From the UHGV virus genome UHGV-0105868: a stretch of 23,305 nt of DNA, one strand, 5' to 3'. This DNA is from a virus. Within the stretch, counting starts at the first letter, position 1, and each line of letters opens with the position of its first letter. The notes under the pieces are model-generated. The model worked only from the letters and a program-made list of their open reading frames with translations. It made no database searches and was not told the origin of the DNA. Shown here piece after piece: positions 8,893 through 21,144 of this stretch. A program made the translations under genes and the position numbers.

Positions 8893-9126
8893 ATGCGCAT
8901 TGAAATAATGATCGATAAAGAGCAGAAAATTAGCCAGTCTACCCTGGACGCCCTTGAATCCGAGCTTTACCGCAATCTGCGCCCCCTGTATCCCAAAACG
9001 GTAATTCGTATCCGCAAAGGTAGCTCTAACGGTGTGGAACTGACCGGACTGCAACTGGACGAAGAAAGAAAACAAGTGATGAAAATTATGCAGAAGGTGT
9101 GGGAAGACGACAGCTGGCTGCATTAA
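8893..9126 (+). CDS. DinI-like protein
   Basis: 77 aa, MRIEIMIDKEQKISQSTLDALESELYRNL…KVWEDDSWLH, resembling E. coli DinI (MRIEVTIAK…ALAGELSRR…ETWESADDWFVSE) in length and pattern. RBS GAGGTG. Confidence 0.75.
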   Translation: MRIEIMIDKEQKISQSTLDALESELYRNLRPLYPKTVIRIRKGSSNGVELTGLQLDEERKQVMKIMQKVWEDDSWLH

Positions 9127-9631
9127 GAAACGTTGCTGGCGTCTGAACTTGCTTCTGGCGTCAGCAAGGTTGAACAACGAGCTGTGCGAGGCGTTAGCCA
9201 TCTGATCAAAAGACATCAAATATCATATTGTATATCGTGGTTAAACGCTGGAAACAATCATTCCCGGTCAGAGGGGCTTCTTTCAATGTCCAAAAGAGTG
9301 AGATAGAGGATACAGGATGGGAAGAGCTTATGATGATTGTTCTTGGATTGACTTGGAATATTTGATGTCCATTATCTAATGGACTTGGTCTTGATAGTTA
9401 TCACGAAAGAGGAAGCCAACGTCATGTATTTGAAGAGTATCTCTTACCTTTTGATTAATTATTGTCCAAGTTTTTCAAAAGCTTCTTATCTGGCGGTCGA
9501 TACATGATTTACTGTTGGATATGGTATTTAAAATTAATCTTTACACTGTGGTATATGCAGAATAGGATATTATCAATACAATCAAACCGTTTTCATACGG
9601 TTGTTAATATTGCAATGTTATAGGTAATGTC

Positions 9632-10750
9632 ATGTATCTTTTCAAGTATTACCGTCCGGACTTCTTCTTCGAGAAAGCTATTCGTTATAATGAATTATAT
9701 TTTTCCGCTCCTGCGCAATTGAATGATCCTAATGATCTCAATATAGATTATCGTTTTGATAATAAATTGAAATTATGGGATATTTTATTGCGTTCTCCTT
9801 GCGATAAATCCTATGAAAATTTGAGTCACATATTAGATTTGAGTAATTTGAAGATACATAAGGGATTGAATCGTATTTTTAGAGGAAAAAAAATAAAAAG
9901 TAGCATTGAGTCATTAGATAGCCTGTTTGACTCACACGTTGATGAGATACGTAAGATCATAAATGATGGTTTACTACCTATCAATGTGATTAATTCCGCT
10001 ATTTATGGGAATATTCCTGAACCACGCCAATTTTTGGTCTCACTTTGCGAGAACAGTATCAAAGAAAGGTTGTATAGGAAAATAGTTCCTGCAGTATTCA
10101 GTGTGTCATTTTCAGCTAATGCGTTAGATCGTATGATGTGGGCGCATTATGCTGCAGGCTTTAGTGGTTGTGTTGTGATTTATGAAACGCAGGATTTTAA
10201 TATTAATGGCGTGCCACATCCTGGAATGAAGCTAAGAGAAAATTTATTTTCATCAGATAAATTTAATTTTCCAGTTAAGCAAATAAAATATAGTAATCAG
10301 GCTAAAGAGGTTTCACTTCTAGACCCAAGCGCAAATGTTGCAGAGTTATTTTTAACTAAAAATAGATTTTGGAGATATGAAGCTGAATATCGAATGTTTA
10401 TTCCAGAGGCAAATGCAGGAATAGGGAGTGAGCGGCATGTTCAAAGACGCGTAAATCGAAATATTGGACATATTTTTCATCATGATGCTAATGTTGTTAA
10501 AGGGATCATTTTTGGTCCTAGAATGTGTGAAATGAAAAAAGAAAGCATATGGAATTGTATCAAGTCAAATATGGAGAATTCAAATTCAACAATATGTTAT
10601 TTTTTTGACTCTGAGTTATCAGCATCAGGAAAGATTACTATTTCAAAAGGGCAACGAGCGGAAAAAATGAAAAATTTCCCTTTGTTCAGGAACAAGTTAA
10701 GTCAGACGGAAATGGCTAAAGTTTTGAAGGAAATTGGCATTACGAACTAA
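9632..10750 (+). CDS. AT-rich cargo protein (372 aa) with DUF2971-like N-terminal motif; candidate defence / abortive-infection gene
   Basis: Long ORF in a visibly AT-rich region, unlike the GC-richer phage backbone. N-terminus LFKYYRPDFFFEKAIRYNELYFSAPAQLNDPNDL and a later …SFSANALDRMMWAHYAAGFSGCVVIY… resemble the DUF2971 family signature as I remember it. Function unknown. Confidence 0.8.
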   Translation: MYLFKYYRPDFFFEKAIRYNELYFSAPAQLNDPNDLNIDYRFDNKLKLWDILLRSPCDKSYENLSHILDLSNLKIHKGLNRIFRGKKIKSSIESLDSLFDSHVDEIRKIINDGLLPINVINSAIYGNIPEPRQFLVSLCENSIKERLYRKIVPAVFSVSFSANALDRMMWAHYAAGFSGCVVIYETQDFNINGVPHPGMKLRENLFSSDKFNFPVKQIKYSNQAKEVSLLDPSANVAELFLTKNRFWRYEAEYRMFIPEANAGIGSERHVQRRVNRNIGHIFHHDANVVKGIIFGPRMCEMKKESIWNCIKSNMENSNSTICYFFDSELSASGKITISKGQRAEKMKNFPLFRNKLSQTEMAKVLKEIGITN

Positions 10751-10816
10751 CCTAACAACAGTGCATGCCTATGCTGCCTGAATTTGCATGACCGTTTGAG
10801 GATCGTTTTTGCTAAG

Positions 10817-10840
10817 GCCCGCCAGAACTGGCGGGCTTTT
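10817..10840 (+). terminator. Rho-independent terminator (gcccgcc-agaact-ggcgggc-TTTT)
   Basis: 7-bp GC stem, 6-nt loop and a T-run, 66 bp downstream of the 9632..10750 stop. Confidence 0.6.
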
Positions 10841-10885
10841 GCGTGGATCAGGCACCTGCATGAAAACCACTACACAAAGCGGGCA

Positions 10886-10904
10886 GGCGTGGCGGGGATA
10901 CGAG
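10886..10904. other. Candidate cos site (19-nt cohesive-end region GGCGTGGCGGGGATACGAG)
   Basis: The first 13 nt match the P2/186 cohesive-end sequences as I remember them (P2 GGCGAGGCGGGGAAAGCAC; 186 GGCGTGGCGGGGAAAGCAT). Sits in a short GC-rich block between the two AT-rich cargo genes, between gene A and the 3' end of Q, where cos lies in P2-like prophages. Confidence 0.4.
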
Positions 10905-11005
10905 CGCGCGCAACAGTGTAACAATCTGGATCTAATGTGATATAGTTACTGTAAATATTATTAATTATTCTTATATGCATTATTAAATATTTTAATGGAG
11001 CGTTT

Positions 11006-12679
11006 ATGGAAAAATATCAAGATGAGGAATATGTAGACGATTTAACTGAGCGTGTTTTTCTCATTAAGCAACAACTGGAAGCGGGAAAACTAAAAATAGC
11101 TCATCATCTTGTAGAAGGTTTTATTGAAAGTTTTAAAAGAATAAGGCTGCGACAGGATGGTAAAGTTGACCCTTCTACTGTTGATGGCAGAATAAGGGCT
11201 ATGGGAGCAGCGGTTAATCACTTTTTAGAAAGAGAAGATATAAAAAACAAATACTCTATTCAGGACTTGCAAAGTTCTTACTTTAATATTCTTTTTAGTA
11301 ATTTTGGCGAGTTGTTTTATCTGATGAAAAAAACTAATGCAACGCCACATAAAGCATCAAGTTTTTTTTCTCAACAAGAAGAATATGTTAAGCAAATAGA
11401 AGGTGTTTTTCCTGAGTTATATAATCAGGTAATAGAGTTTTGGCAGGTAACATCCGATATTGGTGTAATACATTTGCAGGATGGTTCTCAGTTTAAAGCT
11501 AATTTTTCTGGTGACTTATTTCCTGCATTTGATGAGAATGCTGTCTCTATTGCAGGGTTGTATGTTGATACTATTTCACTTCCATGTCCTATATTAAGAG
11601 TCGGTCGTCTCTATGAAAAGTCAGATAAGGCTGAGTTTACAAGGATACTTCTGAAGCATGTCCTAACATGTATGACATATAAAGAAGTAGCGCTTGAAGA
11701 TATAGAGCCAGCAATAGTATTAATTTTGCCGGATAGAAGAGATTTTGAAACTGAGAGCAAAAAAAATTTGATGAGTTTTTGTGAGCCTTATGCTCTGACT
11801 CATGCGCAATATCTCTATGATCGACGGTTCGAAAGCTACGATGAATTTCAAGATTTTAGTTATTCGATGAATGATATTGATGCTGTTCTTAAAAATATTA
11901 AGAGAGCAGATAGACTTATTTTTGATACAGCATGGGGGCTAAATCCAAAAACTCAATTAGAAAAACTACTATCTGATAAAAAAAGAATATCACGTAATGT
12001 TGTTGGTGATCATGCTGGAATGGAGGTTTTCCTTTCCTGCATTGGAAGAATGCCGCAAGCCTATTCAGCAAAATGTAATGCACAAGAACTTGGTAGTACT
12101 CCATATATAAATGCAGACACATCTTGGCTCTATTATACTTGGCTTATTGAGTACGAATCTCTTAATTTTGATGTCAATGATATTGAACTAAAAAATTTGC
12201 ATATGGTTCATGCGTTATCTGCTGGTATGCAAGATGGTTTTTCATGGTTAGGAAATGTACCGGTCAATAAAATAATTGAGTTGAGACGTAACAAATTGAT
12301 GGAGGATGTAAGATCCATCTTATCAAATGGTGTTGACTCTTTAATCAATTCTTCGGCAGAGAGCTTTTCGAGGACAACGCAAAAAGTAATTGATAATGTA
12401 GACCGGGCTTTTATTGAACATCAAAGGATTCTTGCAAAAGCCCAAAAAGAGAAATTGAGAATTTACGGACTGGATGTCCTACCATGTATCGCAAATGGTG
12501 CTATAGCAATTGCTGGAGCGCTGACTGGCAATACTACTTTAGCGGCGTTAAGTGCAGGCCTTGGAGTAATAGGTATTCCGAGTATTAGTGATATCAAATC
12601 TAAATTTAAGCAGAGGCAAGAGAAGCTTGATGCCTATCAACGTTCTGTTACAGGTATACTCTTTAGCCATAAATCTTAA
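11006..12679 (+). CDS. AT-rich cargo protein (557 aa), unknown function, C-terminal hydrophobic Gly/Ala-rich segment; candidate defence / abortive-infection effector
   Basis: Long AT-rich ORF with a GGAG RBS. No motif recognised in the mostly soluble-looking body. Near the C-terminus is a hydrophobic stretch, …LPCIANGAIAIAGALTGNTTLAALSAGLGVIGIPSI…, long enough for one or two membrane helices. Confidence 0.8.
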   Translation: MEKYQDEEYVDDLTERVFLIKQQLEAGKLKIAHHLVEGFIESFKRIRLRQDGKVDPSTVDGRIRAMGAAVNHFLEREDIKNKYSIQDLQSSYFNILFSNFGELFYLMKKTNATPHKASSFFSQQEEYVKQIEGVFPELYNQVIEFWQVTSDIGVIHLQDGSQFKANFSGDLFPAFDENAVSIAGLYVDTISLPCPILRVGRLYEKSDKAEFTRILLKHVLTCMTYKEVALEDIEPAIVLILPDRRDFETESKKNLMSFCEPYALTHAQYLYDRRFESYDEFQDFSYSMNDIDAVLKNIKRADRLIFDTAWGLNPKTQLEKLLSDKKRISRNVVGDHAGMEVFLSCIGRMPQAYSAKCNAQELGSTPYINADTSWLYYTWLIEYESLNFDVNDIELKNLHMVHALSAGMQDGFSWLGNVPVNKIIELRRNKLMEDVRSILSNGVDSLINSSAESFSRTTQKVIDNVDRAFIEHQRILAKAQKEKLRIYGLDVLPCIANGAIAIAGALTGNTTLAALSAGLGVIGIPSISDIKSKFKQRQEKLDAYQRSVTGILFSHKS

Positions 12680-12685
12680 TGTAGA

Positions 12686-12710
12686 GGGCCGAGGTATTCG
12701 GCCCTTAGTT
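12686..12710 (+). terminator. Rho-independent terminator (gggccga-ggtat-tcggccc then T-rich) between convergent genes
   Basis: 7-bp GC-rich stem and 5-nt loop followed by ttagtttta, immediately after the 557-aa ORF stop and before the Q stop. Confidence 0.55.
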
Positions 12711-13742
12711 TTATATGAAACTGTATGGCATGAATTTTATTATGTCATCTTTGAGCCATTTATTGAGTTCTTCTATTCTGTTTTGTAGCGGTATCAATTC
12801 ATTACGCATAAAAACCTTACTAGCCTTCTCCACATCCCCAAATCCCCCAACATTATTCGGTATTATCCCCATCATTTGCGGCGGCACTCGGTGTGCTGCC
12901 ATCATGTCATCCCGGCTCACGTTCTTGATATTCAAAAATTCATCCTTTGCCGCGACTTCTGACAGAGGAATAATCTGAAGCCCGTCCTTTTTGCCGTTAG
13001 GCGAGTACATAAACAGGTTGCGGAAGTTGCCAGGGCCTTTGGCGCTTTTCATCGCATTGCGGAGGTTGTTCACGTCCTCCTGGTTCTGCGCGGCATCGGT
13101 CATGTACATGATGAAGCCAGCATGACTGCCGTTAATGTAATACTTTCGGCGGAACAGCGTGGCGGACTCGTTGAGCAGGGCTGACGGAATGGCAGAAAGA
13201 TAACCGGGCAGGCCGTAGATCTCCTGGTTGATGTCCGGTTCCATCAGATGAAAGATGCTGCCTTTCGTGAACTGATATGGCTGCGTGGTCATACCGTATT
13301 GCACAAACCAGTAGGTATCCAGGTCTAACCCGCGTCGGGTGTATTTTGCCAGGGCAGGTTCAAGGGCGATAACTTCACCGAAGCGGTTCGTGCGTTTCTC
13401 CAGGTAGGCGTTACCAAATACCAGATAGTCCTGAACAAAACGCGAAAAAGCCTGCTGGCTGAGCAGCGGGTGAGGGATGTAGGTGCTGGTCAGAATGTTG
13501 CACTTTACTGCAATCGGGGAACTATGATGCACGGCAGCGCGGAAGGTGCGCGCCAGTCCGTCAAAGCTGACGGGCGGTTCATACCAGCGGTCCATCTGTA
13601 CGCATTCCACATAATCCAGCAGTTCTCGGCGGTCCAGAACAGGAACGGGATCGCCGAAGCTGAATGCTTCGGCTGTAGTTTGACTTTTAAGCTGGATCTG
13701 TTTCGTCGCCGCAGCGCGGTTCTTCTTACTCTTTCCCATCAA
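12711..13742 (-). CDS. Q: Portal protein (P2 gpQ-like)
   Basis: 343 aa at the P2 gene Q position and orientation (3' end toward cos, divergent from the head genes). Confidence 0.85.
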   Translation of the reverse strand: MMGKSKKNRAAATKQIQLKSQTTAEAFSFGDPVPVLDRRELLDYVECVQMDRWYEPPVSFDGLARTFRAAVHHSSPIAVKCNILTSTYIPHPLLSQQAFSRFVQDYLVFGNAYLEKRTNRFGEVIALEPALAKYTRRGLDLDTYWFVQYGMTTQPYQFTKGSIFHLMEPDINQEIYGLPGYLSAIPSALLNESATLFRRKYYINGSHAGFIMYMTDAAQNQEDVNNLRNAMKSAKGPGNFRNLFMYSPNGKKDGLQIIPLSEVAAKDEFLNIKNVSRDDMMAAHRVPPQMMGIIPNNVGGFGDVEKASKVFMRNELIPLQNRIEELNKWLKDDIIKFMPYSFI

Positions 13743-15343
13743 AAAATCTCCACAATATTGCTGGTATTGGCGGATTCGCCCTGCAGCGGTTCGTTAAACA
13801 GTGCGTGCATCGTTGCCCAGGCCAGATCGGCGTGGCTGGCTTCTTCGCTGCGGCTGGCTTCATAGGTCGGGCGGTTGCCACTGGCGGTGGTGGCGCGACG
13901 GATTGCCATAAAGGACTGCGCTATGTCGGTGTGTCCGGCGTCAAACTCCAGACGGCGGTGGCTGATAATGTCGTAGGCCTTGAGTACCAGGGCGTTTTTA
14001 ACGTTGGGGTTGTAGACAAACTCCCGGACGGCAGGAAAAAACGCTTTCACGTTCTCGTAAACCCCGTGACCAACGCCGGTTGAGTCGATACCGATATAGG
14101 TCACGTTGTACTGTTCGGTCAGTTTTTTGATGGCGTCAGCCTGGGCGCGGAAGTCCATCCCGCGCCACTGGTGACGCTCAAGAATGCGGAACTTACCACC
14201 CGGCACGGCTGGCGGTGCCACCACCACGCATCCGGCGCTGTCGCCGTTTTGCGTGCCTTTTGCCGGGTCATAACCGATCCACACTTCGCGCCAGCCAAAC
14301 GGGCGCAGCGCCAGTGCATGAAAGTCGGTCCAGACTTCCCAACTGTCCACCATGCACGCCTGCAGCTCGCTGAGCGGAAACACGGACGCGAGATCGTCCA
14401 CAAACTCGCACATCAGCAGGTTCTGGTATTCATCCGGGCTGTACTCCATGCGTAGCTGGTCGAGGTCGAACAGGTTACAGCCGCCGCGTACCGCATCTTC
14501 CACGGTGACTATCTGGCGGTATTGCCCGTCTGCGCACAGCAGGCCGGGGGCCAGATTGCTGTGGGACAGGTCGATGTCCACCTTATCGGCTTTGTTGCGC
14601 CCACGGTTGAACAGCGCACCGGACCAGAACGGATAAGCACTGTGTGTCAGACTGGATGGCGTGGAAAAATAGGTTTGTCGCCATTTTTTGTGAATAGCCA
14701 TACCGGAAGCCACTTTGCGCAGCTCCTGAAATTTCGGTATCCAGAAATATTCATCCAGATACAGGTTGCCGTGATAACTCTGGGCCGTGCGGGCATTGGT
14801 GCCGAGGAAATACAGTGTGGCCCCGTTGGGAAGCACCATCGGATCGCCTTTCAGCTCCACCTCTACTTCTTTGGCGAAGTCGATGATGTACTGTTTAAAG
14901 ACGTGGGCCTGTGCCTTACTGGCGGAAAGGAAAATCTGGTTACGTCCGGTAAGCAGGGCGTCAATCAGGGCTTCACGGGCAAAGTAAAAGGTCGCGCCGA
15001 TCTGGCGTGACTTCAGCAGGTTGCGGATGCGGTTGGTTTTTCCGGCTTCCCACCAGTGGCGCTGGTAGTTGAACATGGAGGAATGGAAAATTTCTTCCAG
15101 CTTCTCAATCTGTTCATCGGTGAAAACGTTCTTTTCCGGCTGACGGCGTGGGCCTTTGTTGCGGTTGGCGACGTTAGGGTTTAAGTCGGCTTCGTTGCCG
15201 CCATTGTTAAACTTGCCGATCCGCGCATGGCGCTCCGACTGGCGCGCCAGCAGGTCAATCTCTTTGAAATCTTTCCCTTCTTTGTGCTCCTTCATAATGA
15301 GCTGGCAGTAGCGTGCGGCGGTGGTGAGCTGCATCTGATCCAC
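13739..15343 (-). CDS. P: Terminase large subunit (P2 gpP-like ATPase/nuclease)
   Basis: 534 aa with a Walker-A-like …LLKSRQIGATFYFA… region. Start overlaps the Q stop. Start is GTG or a nearby ATG. Confidence 0.85.
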   Translation of the reverse strand: MDQMQLTTAARYCQLIMKEHKEGKDFKEIDLLARQSERHARIGKFNNGGNEADLNPNVANRNKGPRRQPEKNVFTDEQIEKLEEIFHSSMFNYQRHWWEAGKTNRIRNLLKSRQIGATFYFAREALIDALLTGRNQIFLSASKAQAHVFKQYIIDFAKEVEVELKGDPMVLPNGATLYFLGTNARTAQSYHGNLYLDEYFWIPKFQELRKVASGMAIHKKWRQTYFSTPSSLTHSAYPFWSGALFNRGRNKADKVDIDLSHSNLAPGLLCADGQYRQIVTVEDAVRGGCNLFDLDQLRMEYSPDEYQNLLMCEFVDDLASVFPLSELQACMVDSWEVWTDFHALALRPFGWREVWIGYDPAKGTQNGDSAGCVVVAPPAVPGGKFRILERHQWRGMDFRAQADAIKKLTEQYNVTYIGIDSTGVGHGVYENVKAFFPAVREFVYNPNVKNALVLKAYDIISHRRLEFDAGHTDIAQSFMAIRRATTASGNRPTYEASRSEEASHADLAWATMHALFNEPLQGESANTSNIVEIF

Positions 15344-15990: not shown

Positions 15991-16641
15991 ATGAGCCTGA
16001 GTCCCGCACGGCAGCATCGCCTGCGCGTTCAGGCTGAACAGGCCGCCCGCGAGGGCGGCAGCGTTCGCCACGCGTCGGGCTATGACCTGATGCTGCTGCA
16101 ACTGGCGGAAGACCGCCGCCGTCTCAAGGGCGTTCAGTCCACGGTCAAAAAAGCGGAAATCAAGGTGGAGCTGCTGCCGAAGTACGCCGCCTGGGCGGAG
16201 GGTGTCCTGGCTGCCGGAGGCGCTCAACAGGATGACGTGCTGATGTACGTGATGCTGTGGCGCATTGATGCCGGAGATTATGCCGGGGCGCTGGAGATCG
16301 GGCGTCACGCCCTGCGTCATGGCTGGGTGATGCCGTTAGGTAACCGCAACGTGCAGACCGTGCTGGCAGAGGAAATGGCAGATGCAGCCCAGAGCTCAAT
16401 GCTTGCCGCCACCGGCTTTGATGCCGATCTGTTGCTGCAGACCCTGGAGCTGACAGACGGTATGGATATGCCGGACCAGTCACGGGCGCGTCTGCATAAA
16501 GCGATTGGCGCTGTCCTGAGTGAAAGAAATCCGGCGTCTGCCCTTAATCATCTCAACCATGCGTTACAGCTCGATCCCCGCTGTGGCGTGAAAAAAGACA
16601 AACAGCAGCTGGAGCGCAGACTGCGCAATGACAGCCGCTGA
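15991..16641 (+). CDS. M: Terminase small (endonuclease) subunit, P2 gpM-like
   Basis: 216 aa; MSLSPARQHRLRVQAEQAAREGG…VLMYVMLWRIDAGDYAGALEIGRHAL… resembles P2 gpM. Confidence 0.8.
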   Translation: MSLSPARQHRLRVQAEQAAREGGSVRHASGYDLMLLQLAEDRRRLKGVQSTVKKAEIKVELLPKYAAWAEGVLAAGGAQQDDVLMYVMLWRIDAGDYAGALEIGRHALRHGWVMPLGNRNVQTVLAEEMADAAQSSMLAATGFDADLLLQTLELTDGMDMPDQSRARLHKAIGAVLSERNPASALNHLNHALQLDPRCGVKKDKQQLERRLRNDSR

Positions 16642-18117: not shown

Positions 18118-18495
18118 ATGAAAAAGAAATTAATCAGCGGACTGTTTCTGATGTTATGGATGGCGCTGTTAATCGCAGCAATGGTGTATCCGCAGGGGAT
18201 TTTTCCGGTACTGGCAGCGTCCGGCGTTTGGGTAGCCTGTTTGCTGACATGGGCGGTAATTCCGGTAGCACTGGCTGCGTTAATTAAGAATGGCCCGCTC
18301 TGGCAGGAGTTAAGGGCATCTTTGCTGAAGACAATTACCCGAAAAGAAAACGTATTTACCAGTTGGGTGATGCGATTGCTGATTGTTGTAAGTCTCGCCT
18401 GGACGGGGTGGGCTATTACCCTGGTCTTTTATCTACTGACCGTTATTGCCTTCTGGATCACCCGTAATCAGATGGCGCAACAGGTAGCAGCATGA
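18118..18495 (+). CDS. LysA-like lysis-timing membrane protein
   Basis: 125 aa from MKKKLISGLFLMLWMALLIAAMVY…, with about four hydrophobic helices. In the P2 lysA position. Confidence 0.65.
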   Translation: MKKKLISGLFLMLWMALLIAAMVYPQGIFPVLAASGVWVACLLTWAVIPVALAALIKNGPLWQELRASLLKTITRKENVFTSWVMRLLIVVSLAWTGWAITLVFYLLTVIAFWITRNQMAQQVAA

Positions 18496-18926
18496 ACCGG
18501 TTGCTGCTGGTTGTGCTGACGTTATTACTGGCGGCGCTGGGCTGGCAGACGTGGCGGCTGGCTGATGCCAGCCAGACCATCAGCATGCAGGCAGACGAGC
18601 TGCAGAGCAAAAGCCAGGCACTGGCAAAGAGCAATAGCCAGCTTATCAGCCTGTCCATTCTGACTGAAACCAATAACCGGGAGCAGGCGCGGCTCTATGC
18701 CGAAGCAGAACAGACCAGCACGCTGCTGAGACAACGACAACACCGGATCGAGGAACTGAAACGTGAGAACGAGGATTCGCAGCGCAGAAATCATCCCGTA
18801 TCGCGTGGAAGCCACCATTTTTCTCTATCCTGGACCGGAAGCAGAGCCGGTAATGGCAGCGGCAAAAGCCAGCCTGCAGAAGTACATCGCCAGTCAGACG
18901 CGTCTTGGTCGGGATATTCGCCGTAG
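18492..18926 (+). CDS. LysB-like i-spanin, apparently 3'-truncated and running out-of-frame into a gene J remnant
   Basis: N-terminal membrane anchor MNRLLLVVLTLLLAALGW followed by a coiled-coil-like Q/E/R-rich region. The last ~40 codons overlap the J-fragment frame and look non-native. No Rz1/LysC-like ORF seen. Confidence 0.5.
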   Translation: MNRLLLVVLTLLLAALGWQTWRLADASQTISMQADELQSKSQALAKSNSQLISLSILTETNNREQARLYAEAEQTSTLLRQRQHRIEELKRENEDSQRRNHPVSRGSHHFSLSWTGSRAGNGSGKSQPAEVHRQSDASWSGYSP

Positions 18927-19065
18927 CGCCATCTTTGCCGCCCTGCATGTTGAGGGGGTGCAGCGTGTGGAGCTGGCTTCTCCTCAGGCGGATGTGGTCC
19001 TGAACAAAACACAGGCGGCATCATGTACGCAGTGGAGCGTAACCAACGGAGGAACGGATGAATAG
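18799..19065 (+). pseudogene. J: Baseplate protein J, C-terminal fragment only
   Basis: About 90 aa in-frame with and immediately upstream of gene I, overlapping its start. Far shorter than an intact baseplate J (about 300 aa). R, S, V, W and the 5' part of J are absent between the lysis genes and this point. Identification is from gene order and size. Confidence 0.45.
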
Positions 19066-19663
19066 TCTGCTGCCACCGGGTTCAACACCACTGGAGCGCC
19101 GACTGGCGCAAACCTGCAGCGGGATTTCTGATCTGCAGGTGCCGCTTCGTGACTTGTGGAATCCGGCAACCTGTCCGGTCAGTTTCCTGCCTTATCTCGC
19201 CTGGGCGTTCTCTGTGGATCGCTGGGACGAGGGCTGGACAGAAAGCGTCAAGCGCCAGGTGGTGAAGGATGCTTTTTATATTCATCAGCATAAAGGGACC
19301 ACCAGTGCCGTGCGGCGGGTGGTGGAGCCGTTCGGATTCCTGATCCGCATTATTGAGTGGTGGCAGACCGGAGAAACACCGGGCACGTTTCGCCTGGATA
19401 TCGGCGTGCAGGACCAGGGCATCACTGAAGATACCTATCTGGAACTTGAGCGACTGATAAGCGATGCCAAACCATGTAGCCGCCACATGATCGGCATGTC
19501 CATCAATCTGCAGACCAGCGGCCCGCATTGGGTGGGAGCCGCCAGCTATCTTGGCGAAGAAATCACGATCTATCCGTATATCAACGAAACGATTATTTCC
19601 GGTGGCACCGCGCATGAAGGCGGGGCGGTCCATGTTATTGACACAATGAGAGTGAATCCATGA
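19058..19663 (+). CDS. I: Baseplate/tail protein I (P2 gpI-like)
   Basis: 201 aa; …LLPPGSTPLERRLAQTCSGI…LWNPATCPVSFLPYLAWAFSVDRWDEGW… closely resembles P2 gpI as I remember it. Confidence 0.85.
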   Translation: MNSLLPPGSTPLERRLAQTCSGISDLQVPLRDLWNPATCPVSFLPYLAWAFSVDRWDEGWTESVKRQVVKDAFYIHQHKGTTSAVRRVVEPFGFLIRIIEWWQTGETPGTFRLDIGVQDQGITEDTYLELERLISDAKPCSRHMIGMSINLQTSGPHWVGAASYLGEEITIYPYINETIISGGTAHEGGAVHVIDTMRVNP

Positions 19664-21144
19664 GCACAAAATTTTATACCCTGCTGACGGATATTGGCGC
19701 GGCGAAACTTGCCAGCGCCGCCGCGCTCGGTGTGCCGCTAAAAATTACCCATATGGCGGTGGGCGATGGCGGTGGAGTATTGCCAACGCCGGACGCAAAG
19801 CAGACGGCACTGGTAAATGAGAAACGCCGGGCTGCACTGAATATGCTTTATATCGACCCGCAGAACAGCAGCCAGATTATTGCCGAACAGGTGATCCCTG
19901 AAAACGAGGGCGGTTGGTGGATACGTGAAGTGGGCTTGTTTGATGAGTCCGGGGCATTGATTGCCGTGGGCAACTGCCCGGAAAGCTATAAGCCGCAACT
20001 GGCTGAAGGTAGCGGGCGCACTCAGACCGTGCGCATGGTGCTGATTACCAGCAGCACGGACAATATCACCCTGAAAATCGACCCTGCTGTAGTGCTGGCA
20101 ACCCGCAAGTATGTGGATGACAAGGCACTGGAGCTGAAGGTGTACGCGGATGATCAGATGGCAAAACATCTTGCCGCACCGGACCCGCATTCACAGTACG
20201 CGCCAAAAGCCAGCCCGACATTTACCGGAATCCCCAAAGCGCCAACGCCAGCGGCGGGGAATAATACCACGCAGGTTGCGACCACTGCGTTTGTACAGGC
20301 GGCACTGACGGCCCTTATTAATGGTGCGCCAGCCACGCTGGACACGCTGAAAGAAATAGCCGCAGCCATTAACAATGATCCGAATTTCAGTACCACCATT
20401 AACAATGCGCTGGCACTAAAAGCACCGTTGTCGAGTCCGGCACTCACCGGAACGCCAACAGCCCCCACGGCGGCGCAGTCGGTCAACAATACACAGATTG
20501 CCACTACGGCTTTTGTGAAATCGGCGATTGCAGGAATGGTGGGTTCTGCACCTGCTGCACTGGATACACTGAACGAACTGGCGGCGGCACTGGGGAATGA
20601 TCCGAACTTTGCCACGACAATGCTTAATGCGTTGGCAGGTAAACAACCGCTGGACAATACGCTTACCAATTTGAGTGGAAAGGATGTAGCTGGTCTTCTC
20701 ACATACCTTCAATTGGGAGAAGCGGCAAAACGGGATGTCGGAACCGGTAATAATCAACTCCCGGACATGTCCGCATTTGGTATGTCGCGAAACGGACAAA
20801 CTGCCTGGGATATTCTCCCAAATGGTATGATTCGACAGGCTGGCACTGTGACACTGACACCAGTTGGTAACTTCAACTCGCAGGTGCTTGGTGGGGTGAC
20901 GTACTACACCCATTACTACAGGGTTAATTTCCCCAGACAATTCCCAAATGCACAAATAGCAACGCTGGCAACACTAGCGAGTTACAGCTATTCGACCCAG
21001 GCAACAATGGCCGGAAAATCACTGGCAACGCATCGCGATACTGATTCTGGCACTGACGTATCAAGAACGCGATTCACTGTGGCGTATACGACACCCAATC
21101 TCGGCGAAACACCGACACTGCATTTTGAAGCAATAGGATACTAA
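19660..21144 (+). CDS. H: Tail fibre protein (P2 gpH-like) with a divergent C-terminal receptor-binding region
   Basis: 494 aa. The N-terminal two-thirds carry conserved fibre motifs (MAVGDGGG, ESYKPQLAEGSGRTQT, repeated …PTFTG.P.APT…NNTQ(V/I)ATTAFV…, LNELAAALGNDPNFATTM). The C-terminal ~150 aa are different and end …EAIGY. Confidence 0.85.
   Translation: MSTKFYTLLTDIGAAKLASAAALGVPLKITHMAVGDGGGVLPTPDAKQTALVNEKRRAALNMLYIDPQNSSQIIAEQVIPENEGGWWIREVGLFDESGALIAVGNCPESYKPQLAEGSGRTQTVRMVLITSSTDNITLKIDPAVVLATRKYVDDKALELKVYADDQMAKHLAAPDPHSQYAPKASPTFTGIPKAPTPAAGNNTTQVATTAFVQAALTALINGAPATLDTLKEIAAAINNDPNFSTTINNALALKAPLSSPALTGTPTAPTAAQSVNNTQIATTAFVKSAIAGMVGSAPAALDTLNELAAALGNDPNFATTMLNALAGKQPLDNTLTNLSGKDVAGLLTYLQLGEAAKRDVGTGNNQLPDMSAFGMSRNGQTAWDILPNGMIRQAGTVTLTPVGNFNSQVLGGVTYYTHYYRVNFPRQFPNAQIATLATLASYSYSTQATMAGKSLATHRDTDSGTDVSRTRFTVAYTTPNLGETPTLHFEAIGY

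Follow-up and report, generated by a model that had tools for sequence, protein, structure and literature searches.

The 19-nt sequence GGCGTGGCGGGGATACGAG, at positions 10886-10904 of the window, is in our reading the cohesive-end site (cos) of a P2-family phage of the Fels-2 type (Felsduovirus-like) that has integrated between rcdA and ybjL of E. coli, a conclusion to which we give a probability of roughly 0.88. By the window we mean the whole 23,305-nt stretch that was analysed (UHGV virus genome UHGV-0105868), which is a P2-like prophage lying beside rcdA in E. coli. The site is of the ordinary P2-family (Fels-2-type) kind, has been described before, and lies within the known gpA-gpQ accessory hotspot. 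Neither the cos site nor the accessory genes at both genome ends are new, since the SEN8 genome paper and the hotspot literature describe both, and the layout is common in the lineage. What we add is modest: a cos island of 151 bp divides the hotspot, and in the Fels-2 lineage it is mainly the slot between cos and Q that is used. The elements on which the argument draws are as follows.

8893-9126, plus strand: dinI-like gene, where the conserved genes of the replication side end (Pfam DinI 1e-22; RefSeq annotation of p10A)
9199-10760, plus strand: left cargo module (right genome end), 34% G+C; E. coli PE15 lacks it as a block
9632-10750, plus strand: coding sequence of a 372-aa DUF2971 / PDC-S31 protein (Pfam, PADLOC, PHROG 1762)
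10761-10911, plus strand: conserved cos block, 151 bp, 58% G+C, an island between two AT-rich variable modules
10762-10790, plus strand: three same-strand TGCATG-type repeats (10762-10767; degenerate TGCCTG, 10775-10780; 10785-10790)
10817-10840, plus strand: hairpin GCCCGCCAG-AA-CTGGCGGGC (10817-10836) followed by TTTT (10837-10840), from fold and position
10850-10885, plus strand: proximal core AGGCA-CC-TGCATG, AAAACC and AAAGCGGGCA, abutting the predicted cut (cos-region alignment)
10886-10904, plus strand: predicted cohesive end of 19 nt (cosN equivalent), GGCGTGGCGGGGATACGAG; aligns in register with the cos annotated in P2, 186 and PsP3
10905-10911, plus strand: CGCGCGC, with which conservation ends on the Q side; immediately followed by the right cargo module
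10912-12710, plus strand: right (left-genome-end) cargo module, 35% G+C, with a promoter-like site, a coding sequence and a terminator-like hairpin
10918-10946, plus strand: promoter-like site (consensus match only)
11006-12679, plus strand: coding sequence of a 557-aa protein family with no assigned function (open reading frame; RefSeq hypothetical protein in p10A)
12684-12706: terminator-like hairpin that separates the right coding sequence from the end of Q and is shared with the latter (consensus match only)
12711-13742, minus strand: portal gene Q, where the conserved genes of the packaging side begin (PHROG 68 7e-175, Pfam Phage_portal)
13739-15343, minus strand: terminase ATPase gene P, lacking its first ~54 codons (PHROG match from profile position 56)
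15991-16641, plus strand: terminase small/endonuclease subunit gene M, intact (PHROG 74 5e-88, Pfam Phage_term_smal)

From position 10805 the window reads GTTTTTGCTAAGGCCCGCCAGAACTGGCGGGCTTTTGCGTGGATCAGGCACCTGCATGAAAACCACTACACAAAGCGGGCA, then GGCGTGGCGGGGATACGAG, then CGCGCGCAACAG, and for comparison with it the ends of P2 and 186 were taken from sequence records. The annotated cosL of P2 (AF063097, positions 1-19) is GGCGAGGCGGGGAAAGCAC, just as the original prediction gave it, and P4 carries the same cohesive 19-mer; the annotated cos of 186 (U32222, positions 1-19) is GGCGTGGCGGGGAAAGCAT, which is also the cos of PsP3. The GC-rich sequence in the window starts GGCG(A/T)GGCGGGGA, the opening of P2-family (Peduoviridae) cos sites. 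Its first 13 nt had been said to match P2 and 186 alike, which is exact for 186 (13/13) but one base short for P2 (12/13). Over the full length, ungapped and anchored at the cut, 15 of 19 positions agree with 186, 14 of 19 with P2 and all 19 with SEN8 and Fels-2. Positions 14-19 read TACGAG in the window, as opposed to AAGCA(C/T) in P2/186, and because 4-5 of these bases differ, a cut spacing identical to that of P2/186 is an assumption. By homology with 186 and P2, the top strand is predicted to be nicked 5' of 10886 and the bottom strand after 10904.

The site is unique within the window. The family pattern GGCGWGGCGGGGA has a single zero-mismatch match there, and a second cos candidate, which would have told against the claim, was not found by this motif scan; no better candidate exists in the window because the remaining matches, two in all, carry 2 mismatches and fall in unrelated coding sequence. 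Alignment of the flanks with the cos regions of P2/186 had been proposed as a further check. About 125 bp to the left and 7 bp, CGCGCGC, to the right align with known cos regions, and the site therefore stands where a lack of flanking similarity would have counted against it.

Further support comes from SEN8, a viable Fels-2-like Salmonella phage that was sequenced from virion DNA and whose genome announcement names the cos site ggcgtggcggggatacgag (PMC5427200). The SEN8 record (KT630647.2) begins with the window's own 19-mer, under the feature label 'putative cos site', and the left flank of the window aligns to the very last base of that record, equivalent to window position 10885. Within the phage collection, SEN8 is the only genome linearised exactly at the predicted cut. 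The cut positions for this 19-mer are thus putative in SEN8 as well, and rest on homology.

The surrounding genes place the site where a P2-family cos should be. Their order is A, a small open reading frame (orf), dinI, cargo, cos, cargo, Q, P, (O, N) and M. Positions 9100-13000 match five complete genomes, four of them, including p10A, at 100% and the fifth, EC13, at a slightly lower score; of these five, the prophage of p10A, assembly GCF_011331065.1, was inspected. There the RefSeq annotation runs from integrase, CI, CII, Fil, Dam, the replication endonuclease (gpA), a small ORF and a DinI-like protein on to a DUF2971 protein, a hypothetical protein, portal, terminase ATPase, scaffold, capsid and terminase endonuclease subunit. 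PHROG and Pfam scans of the window agree with this annotation, and together they put the site between the A/dinI end and the Q-P genes. The cos of P2 and of 186 sits between the same gene ends; in P2, cosL occupies positions 1-19 and Q begins at 187, with old and tin before cosR. The intact p10A prophage measures ~34 kb between rcdA and ybjL, and P2 measures 33.6 kb. A 37.4-kb circular replicon, CP019275.1, carries the same cos and the same right cargo.

Whether the site can still be used in this particular copy is a separate matter. Compared with p10A, the window is collinear but for three mismatches and two clean deletions. The first, of 1,567 bp (positions 18244-19810 of the p10A locus, L007; junction at window 15341/15342), has taken out O (scaffold) entirely, the P/O control region, and the opening ~54 codons of P and ~137 codons of N (capsid). 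The second, of 2,717 bp (positions 23248-25964 of the same locus; junction at window 18776/18777), has taken out lysC, two tail completion genes, V and W, together with the 3' part of lysB and the 5' part of J. The truncations are visible in the profile matches, with the capsid match beginning at Pfam position 136 of 327 and the terminase match at PHROG position 56. If the deletions are real, the prophage cannot package itself, and cos would be idle unless a helper acted in trans.

The site may be genuine by descent and yet a relic here, belonging to a defective prophage, never cut by its own terminase and at most letting the element be packaged in trans by a co-resident Fels-2-type phage. We judge this to fall only slightly short of an even chance. 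The 1,567 bp and 2,717 bp missing relative to p10A speak for it. However, the junction of the first deletion occurs in none of the 5,426 complete E. coli genomes nor in the GTDB species representatives, and for this reason the deletions may be private to one strain, or an artefact of assembly or of the construction of the window. Moreover, the five complete genomes carry 9100-13000 essentially identically, P and the head genes are intact in p10A, and the cos block has undergone no decay relative to p10A or to L112, an IMG/VR locus.

The 19-mer is the right-hand part of a conserved block of 151 bp. The original prediction spoke of a short GC-rich block, and this is borne out, for 10817-10904 is 62.5% G+C between modules of 34% (left) and 35% (right), with the phage core genes at 53-54%. 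The limits of the block, 10761-10911, are set by three comparisons: homology with E. coli PE15 resumes at 10761, homology with Fels-2 spans window 10763-10913, and conservation stops at +26 from the cut among the IMG/VR matches listed, where loci with the window's 19-mer diverge from one another right after CGCGCG(C). Of 9199-12710, only this block is kept in Fels-2, SEN8, SopEPhi, RE-2010 and many P2-like phages of Klebsiella, Yersinia and Escherichia, and blastn with it retrieves 87-89 phage records, mostly P2-like phages of Klebsiella, Yersinia, Salmonella and Escherichia. It is strongly asymmetric about the cut, extending ~125 bp on the A side and only 7 bp past the 19-mer on the Q side. 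Neither an Rfam family at gathering thresholds nor a tRNA was found anywhere in the window, so the block corresponds to no known RNA element and to no att site associated with a tRNA.

Leftward from the cut, the window has in common with known cos regions AAAGCGGGC(A/G), AAAACC and a TGCA-N3-TGCAT pair, then an inverted repeat near -65 and three TGCAT(G) repeats between about -125 and -95. To the right, the sole common feature is (T/C)GCGCGC, which directly follows the 19-mer in P2, 186, P4, SEN8 and Fels-2. Ungapped identity from -36 to +26 is 58/62 with SEN8 and with Fels-2, 48/62 with 186, 48/62 with P4 and 43/62 with P2. The proximal core corresponds to the 55-bp core common to P2 and P4, the cos core of P2-like phages and P4 attributed to Ziermann and Calendar (1990), as cited in PMC3931495 and PMC9594776. 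The triple repeat has its equivalent in P2, 186, P4, SEN8 and Fels-2 at the same distance from the cut. TGCATG is rarer in the window than expected (10 found, 25.5 expected), and 3 same-strand copies are nonetheless packed within 10762-10862. These TGCATG-type repeats are candidate terminase-recognition sites, a role suggested by their position and conservation; compared with Fels-2 and SEN8, the window's allele has mutations in two of the five TGCA(T) copies.

A scan of IMG/VR with the 18-nt pattern GGGCRGGCGWGGCGGGGA returned at least 120 loci, and among the 120 matches listed the window's 19-mer is the commonest variant (42/120). None of these 120 loci is on a contig that starts or ends at the 19-mer. 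Among the matches listed, loci that carry the window's 19-mer have a P with a median identity of 99.6% to the window's and an M with a median of 97.7%, against ~64% and ~49% for loci of other cos types. This variant of the 19-mer thus belongs to a distinct terminase lineage, and M is presumed to be the partner that recognises cos.

The hairpin within the block had been described as a terminator, and the structure is as predicted. Its stem of 11 bp, with TTTT after it, folds at -24.5 kcal/mol over 46 nt (z = -4.3), a stability reached by 0 of 200 shuffles. It begins 67 nt after the stop (10750) of the co-oriented left cargo gene, and its position is fixed at -69 to -50 from the cut. We surveyed it in 42 sequences with the window's 19-mer, comprising 41 IMG/VR loci among the matches listed and the window itself. 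A perfect stem of at least 6 bp with at least 4 T in the next 8 bases is present in 28 of the 42, as against 0 of 30 P2-type sites among the IMG/VR matches listed. We regard the hairpin as the probable intrinsic terminator of the rightward A/dinI/left-cargo transcripts. Our hold on this is moderate because the T-run is short (the tail, TTTTGCGT, has four consecutive T), because a simple consensus terminator scan did not list the hairpin, and because no compensatory substitutions were found in it. An apparent case in locus L108 is offset by one position, and the variation otherwise consists of mismatches and a flip of the loop between AA and TT, so covariation cannot tell an RNA terminator from a DNA palindrome.

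The same structure could instead be mainly a packaging signal, a palindromic site for terminase or a host factor, whose likeness to a terminator is incidental. We consider this unlikely, even though several observations suit it. The hairpin belongs to the conserved block and has a set of TGCA repeats on either side, and at equal distance from the cut 186, P4 and many 186-type loci have an inverted repeat, CCAG(N2-3)CTGG or CGCC..GGCG (a shorter CGCCAG..CTGGCG palindrome), with no T-run; a palindrome bound by protein would, besides, show the same pattern of conservation. But P2-type cos regions mostly do without it (present in 1 of 30 among the IMG/VR matches listed), so a palindrome is not a general packaging requirement. 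In the Fels-2-type group, moreover, the stem is lengthened to 9-11 bp with the T-run after it in those 28 of 42 sequences, and the terminator scan of the window sequence found no other terminator between the rightward genes and the cut. We hold with moderate confidence that the terminator arose in the Fels-2 lineage, by extension of an older CCAG..CTGG palindrome in the cos region.

A chance GC-rich motif, or the cos of a P4-like satellite in place of the phage's own, is rejected as having a negligible probability: chance matches to the pattern do occur (L022, L096 and L111, 3 of the 120 IMG/VR matches listed, are without the TGCAT, AAAACC and AAAGCGGGCA context), but 23 kb is too short for an exact 13-mer to be expected by chance, the match is the only one in the window, ~125 bp of its flank aligns with known cos regions, and the neighbours A, dinI, Q, P and M are P2-like phage genes, not P4 genes.

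On both sides the cos site was claimed to be flanked by cargo genes, and this is upheld, with the DUF2971 gene on the left, the 557-aa gene on the right and both open reading frames annotated in the p10A RefSeq record. The left protein scores 22.4 bits against Pfam DUF2971, just above the cut-off of 22, matches the PADLOC candidate PDC-S31 at 3e-23, and is a RefSeq 'DUF2971 domain-containing protein' in E. coli p10A. DUF2971 has been argued to be a DarT/AbiGi-like ADP-ribosyltransferase, a predicted activity (PMC12522546), and Aristaios, a DUF2971 protein of Lactococcus, is a validated antiphage (Abi) gene (PMC11381338). The right protein, whose ATG is preceded by a Shine-Dalgarno-like GGAG (consensus match), has a weak PADLOC match to DitB and no match to Pfam, NCBIfam or PHROG in profile searches; no fold relative was found. 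Its family is well conserved and of constant length, reaches across Enterobacterales, Aeromonas and beyond, and is annotated as hypothetical only. Should the phage be cut at the predicted site, the DUF2971 gene would lie at the right end of the genome and the 557-aa gene at the left, in line with the claim of one cargo gene at each end.

The two sides appear to be filled separately. In PE15, hardly anything separates dinI from the sequence homologous to window 10761 and beyond, which makes the left module, 9199-10760, a discrete unit that was either inserted or deleted. The same right-hand gene, with the left slot empty, is found in PE15, in nine further E. coli genomes and in CP019275.1. The IMG/VR locus L112 has the same left module (97.9%) and a cos block that is 100% identical, and the window's right module is unmatched there. 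From these loci, and from Fels-2 and SEN8, whose genes are unrelated to the window's on both sides, we conclude that the two slots are filled independently, as seen in a few cases. Among the IMG/VR matches listed, Q lies ~185 bp off in 22 of 26 loci with a P2-type cos and all cargo is on the A side, whereas more than 400 bp separate cos and Q in 27 of 31 Fels-2-type loci. Where both anchors are visible among these matches, the gap exceeds 400 bp on each side of cos in 15 of 24 Fels-2-type loci, a count that takes in the window; with the stricter requirement of at least ~0.9 kb beyond dinI on the left, the figure is 8/24, again with the window included.

The locus itself has a history. The region gpA-gpQ of P2-like phages was described as an antiphage hotspot 'adjacent to the cos site', from 18,150 E. 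coli loci, in Rousset 2022 (PMC9122126), and a 2026 survey (PMC13586616) repeats the gpA-gpQ hotspot. A hotspot from cosL to Q had been suggested by Dodd and Egan 1996 and by Nakayama 1999, as cited in PMC5694545. The Rousset 2022 locus table (PMC9122126) lists the window's DUF2971 protein (WP_021542067) as well as WP_024235280, the PE15 close homologue of the 557-aa protein.

Based on homology with P2, 186 and SEN8, the site would work as follows. During lytic growth, the block would be recognised by the P/M terminase, for which the same-strand TGCATG repeats and the AAAACC...AAAGCGGGCA core are the probable recognition elements, all of them on the A/dinI side of the cut. Nicks 5' of 10886 (top strand) and after 10904 (bottom strand) would leave 19-nt 5' overhangs. 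The linear virion genome would then start 7 bp before the module of the 557-aa gene and end ~135 bp after the DUF2971 gene, a placement at the cargo genes that follows from the predicted nicks. Rightward A/dinI/cargo transcripts would most likely terminate at the hairpin (10817-10840), 45 nt ahead of the cut. The 151-bp block would itself remain a fixed island that splits the gpA-gpQ hotspot into two independently filled slots. In the window copy, the site is probably idle, because the deletions have cost that copy O and several tail genes and have truncated P and N at their 5' ends.

It is tempting to speculate further. The block could be a fixed island of homology, not just a cut site, parting gpA-gpQ into two independently recombining slots; the right slot would begin 7 bp past the cohesive end and place cargo within ~100 bp of each end of the virion DNA; the Fels-2 lineage would usually fill this right slot, the reverse of P2; and the 557-aa protein, for which no fold relative is recognisable and which has a hydrophobic, Gly/Ala-rich helix close to the C terminus, would represent a new single-gene antiphage family. 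Taken jointly we hold this as doubtful, somewhat less probable than the relic considered above.

Beyond the site itself, the analysis fixes the predicted genome ends for P2-like prophages that are very common in E. coli, Salmonella and Klebsiella, which is of value for annotation, and the gpA-gpQ 'hotspot' is better regarded as really two slots parted by cos. It offers two candidates for defence assays, the DUF2971 ADP-ribosyltransferase-like gene and the uncharacterised 557-aa family. Those planning an induction should note that the window copy appears to be without essential head and tail genes. The understanding of packaging in the P2 family is unchanged.

Among known systems, SEN8 and Fels-2 (Felsduovirus) resemble the window most, sharing an identical 19-mer, the hairpin with its T-run, the TGCATG repeats, and a cos between dinI and Q with accessory genes on both sides. 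The layout is SEN8_49, cos, SEN8_1 and SEN8_2 in SEN8, and STM2726, cos and STM2723.1 in Fels-2. The cargo genes, however, are different from and unrelated to those of the window on both sides, and the window in turn has two mutated TGCA copies and the internal deletions of head and tail genes.

The relationship to 186, PsP3, P2 and P4 is more distant. These, which have 19-nt 5' cohesive ends, share the 13-nt start (12/13 for P2 and P4), the AAAGCGGGC(A/G) left box, the (T/C)GCGCGC right box, AAAACC, the TGCA-N3-TGCAT pair and the three distal TGCAT repeats at equal spacing. Unlike the window, P2 and 186 have Q ~185 bp after cos, with no gene between, and their terminases are only ~64% (P) and ~49% (M) identical to the window's. 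The 186 terminator t95b lies upstream of the TGCAT repeats, whereas the hairpin of the window is inside the block. The Rousset hotspot is the same locus as the one described here, with variable content between the conserved anchors gpA(/dinI) and gpQ. The published surveys, in the portions that concern it, take gpA-gpQ as one locus, whereas here the left and right of cos are resolved separately.

The side of cos on which cargo is carried varies with lineage among the IMG/VR matches listed, loci L014-L133 with the cos motif, within which the comparison was made. Among the matches listed, those with a P2-type cos almost always have Q, the portal gene, about 185 bp away, with their cargo wholly on the A side. 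For Fels-2-type cos among the matches listed, the gap from cos to Q is usually 0.5-3.4 kb and the other side is often empty beyond dinI; in this group, terminase P is better conserved, at a median of 99.6%, than Q or A, at about 89%.

The conserved 151-bp cos block of the window (10761-10911) has five copies of the TGCA(T) repeat, and two of these carry mutations when set against Fels-2 and SEN8:

10775-10780, mutated repeat copy, TGCCTG where Fels-2 and SEN8 have TGCATG
10850-10854, mutated repeat copy, AGGCA where Fels-2 and SEN8 have ATGCA

The same cos-block allele, with both mutated repeats identical to those of the window, is carried by E. coli p10A, a relative with an intact prophage, and by IMG/VR locus L112. 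The hairpin inside the block also exists as two alleles, CCAGAACTGG and CCAGTTCTGG, each the exact reverse complement of the other, and the difference falls at 10826-10827 and at the equivalent positions in L029, L031, L046, L066 and others. This pair is consistent with either a plain 2-nt loop change or inversion of the palindrome.

By alignment, the p10A prophage is ~99.98% identical to that of the window outside two clean internal deletions:

15341/15342, junction of deletion 1, 1,567 bp missing relative to the p10A prophage
18776/18777, junction of deletion 2, 2,717 bp missing relative to the p10A prophage

Deletion 1 takes out scaffold gene O entirely and truncates terminase gene P and capsid gene N, both on their 5' side; deletion 2 takes out V and W along with lysC and the tail completion genes, and truncates lysB on its 3' side and J on its 5' side. 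Junction 15341/15342 was not found in 5,426 complete E. coli genomes or in GTDB representatives. The two deletions are either a private defect of this prophage or an artefact.

A circular sequence of 37,446 bp, CP019275.1 (L134), is deposited as 'plasmid' p13P477T-2 of E. coli 13P477T. Its cos block and 557-aa gene, the right cargo gene, are both the same as those of the window, and it is a complete P2-like phage genome. There is also a match in that strain's chromosome (H54), and this suggests that the sequenced culture contained an excised, circular copy of the phage.

The left cargo gene was assigned by profile matches:

9632-10750, gene for a DUF2971 / PADLOC PDC-S31 protein

Directly 5' of it is a non-coding, AT-rich stretch of about 500 bp (9127-9631). 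DUF2971 is a predicted DarT/AbiGi-like ADP-ribosyltransferase (PMC12522546), and one member, Aristaios of Lactococcus, is a validated abortive-infection gene (PMC11381338).
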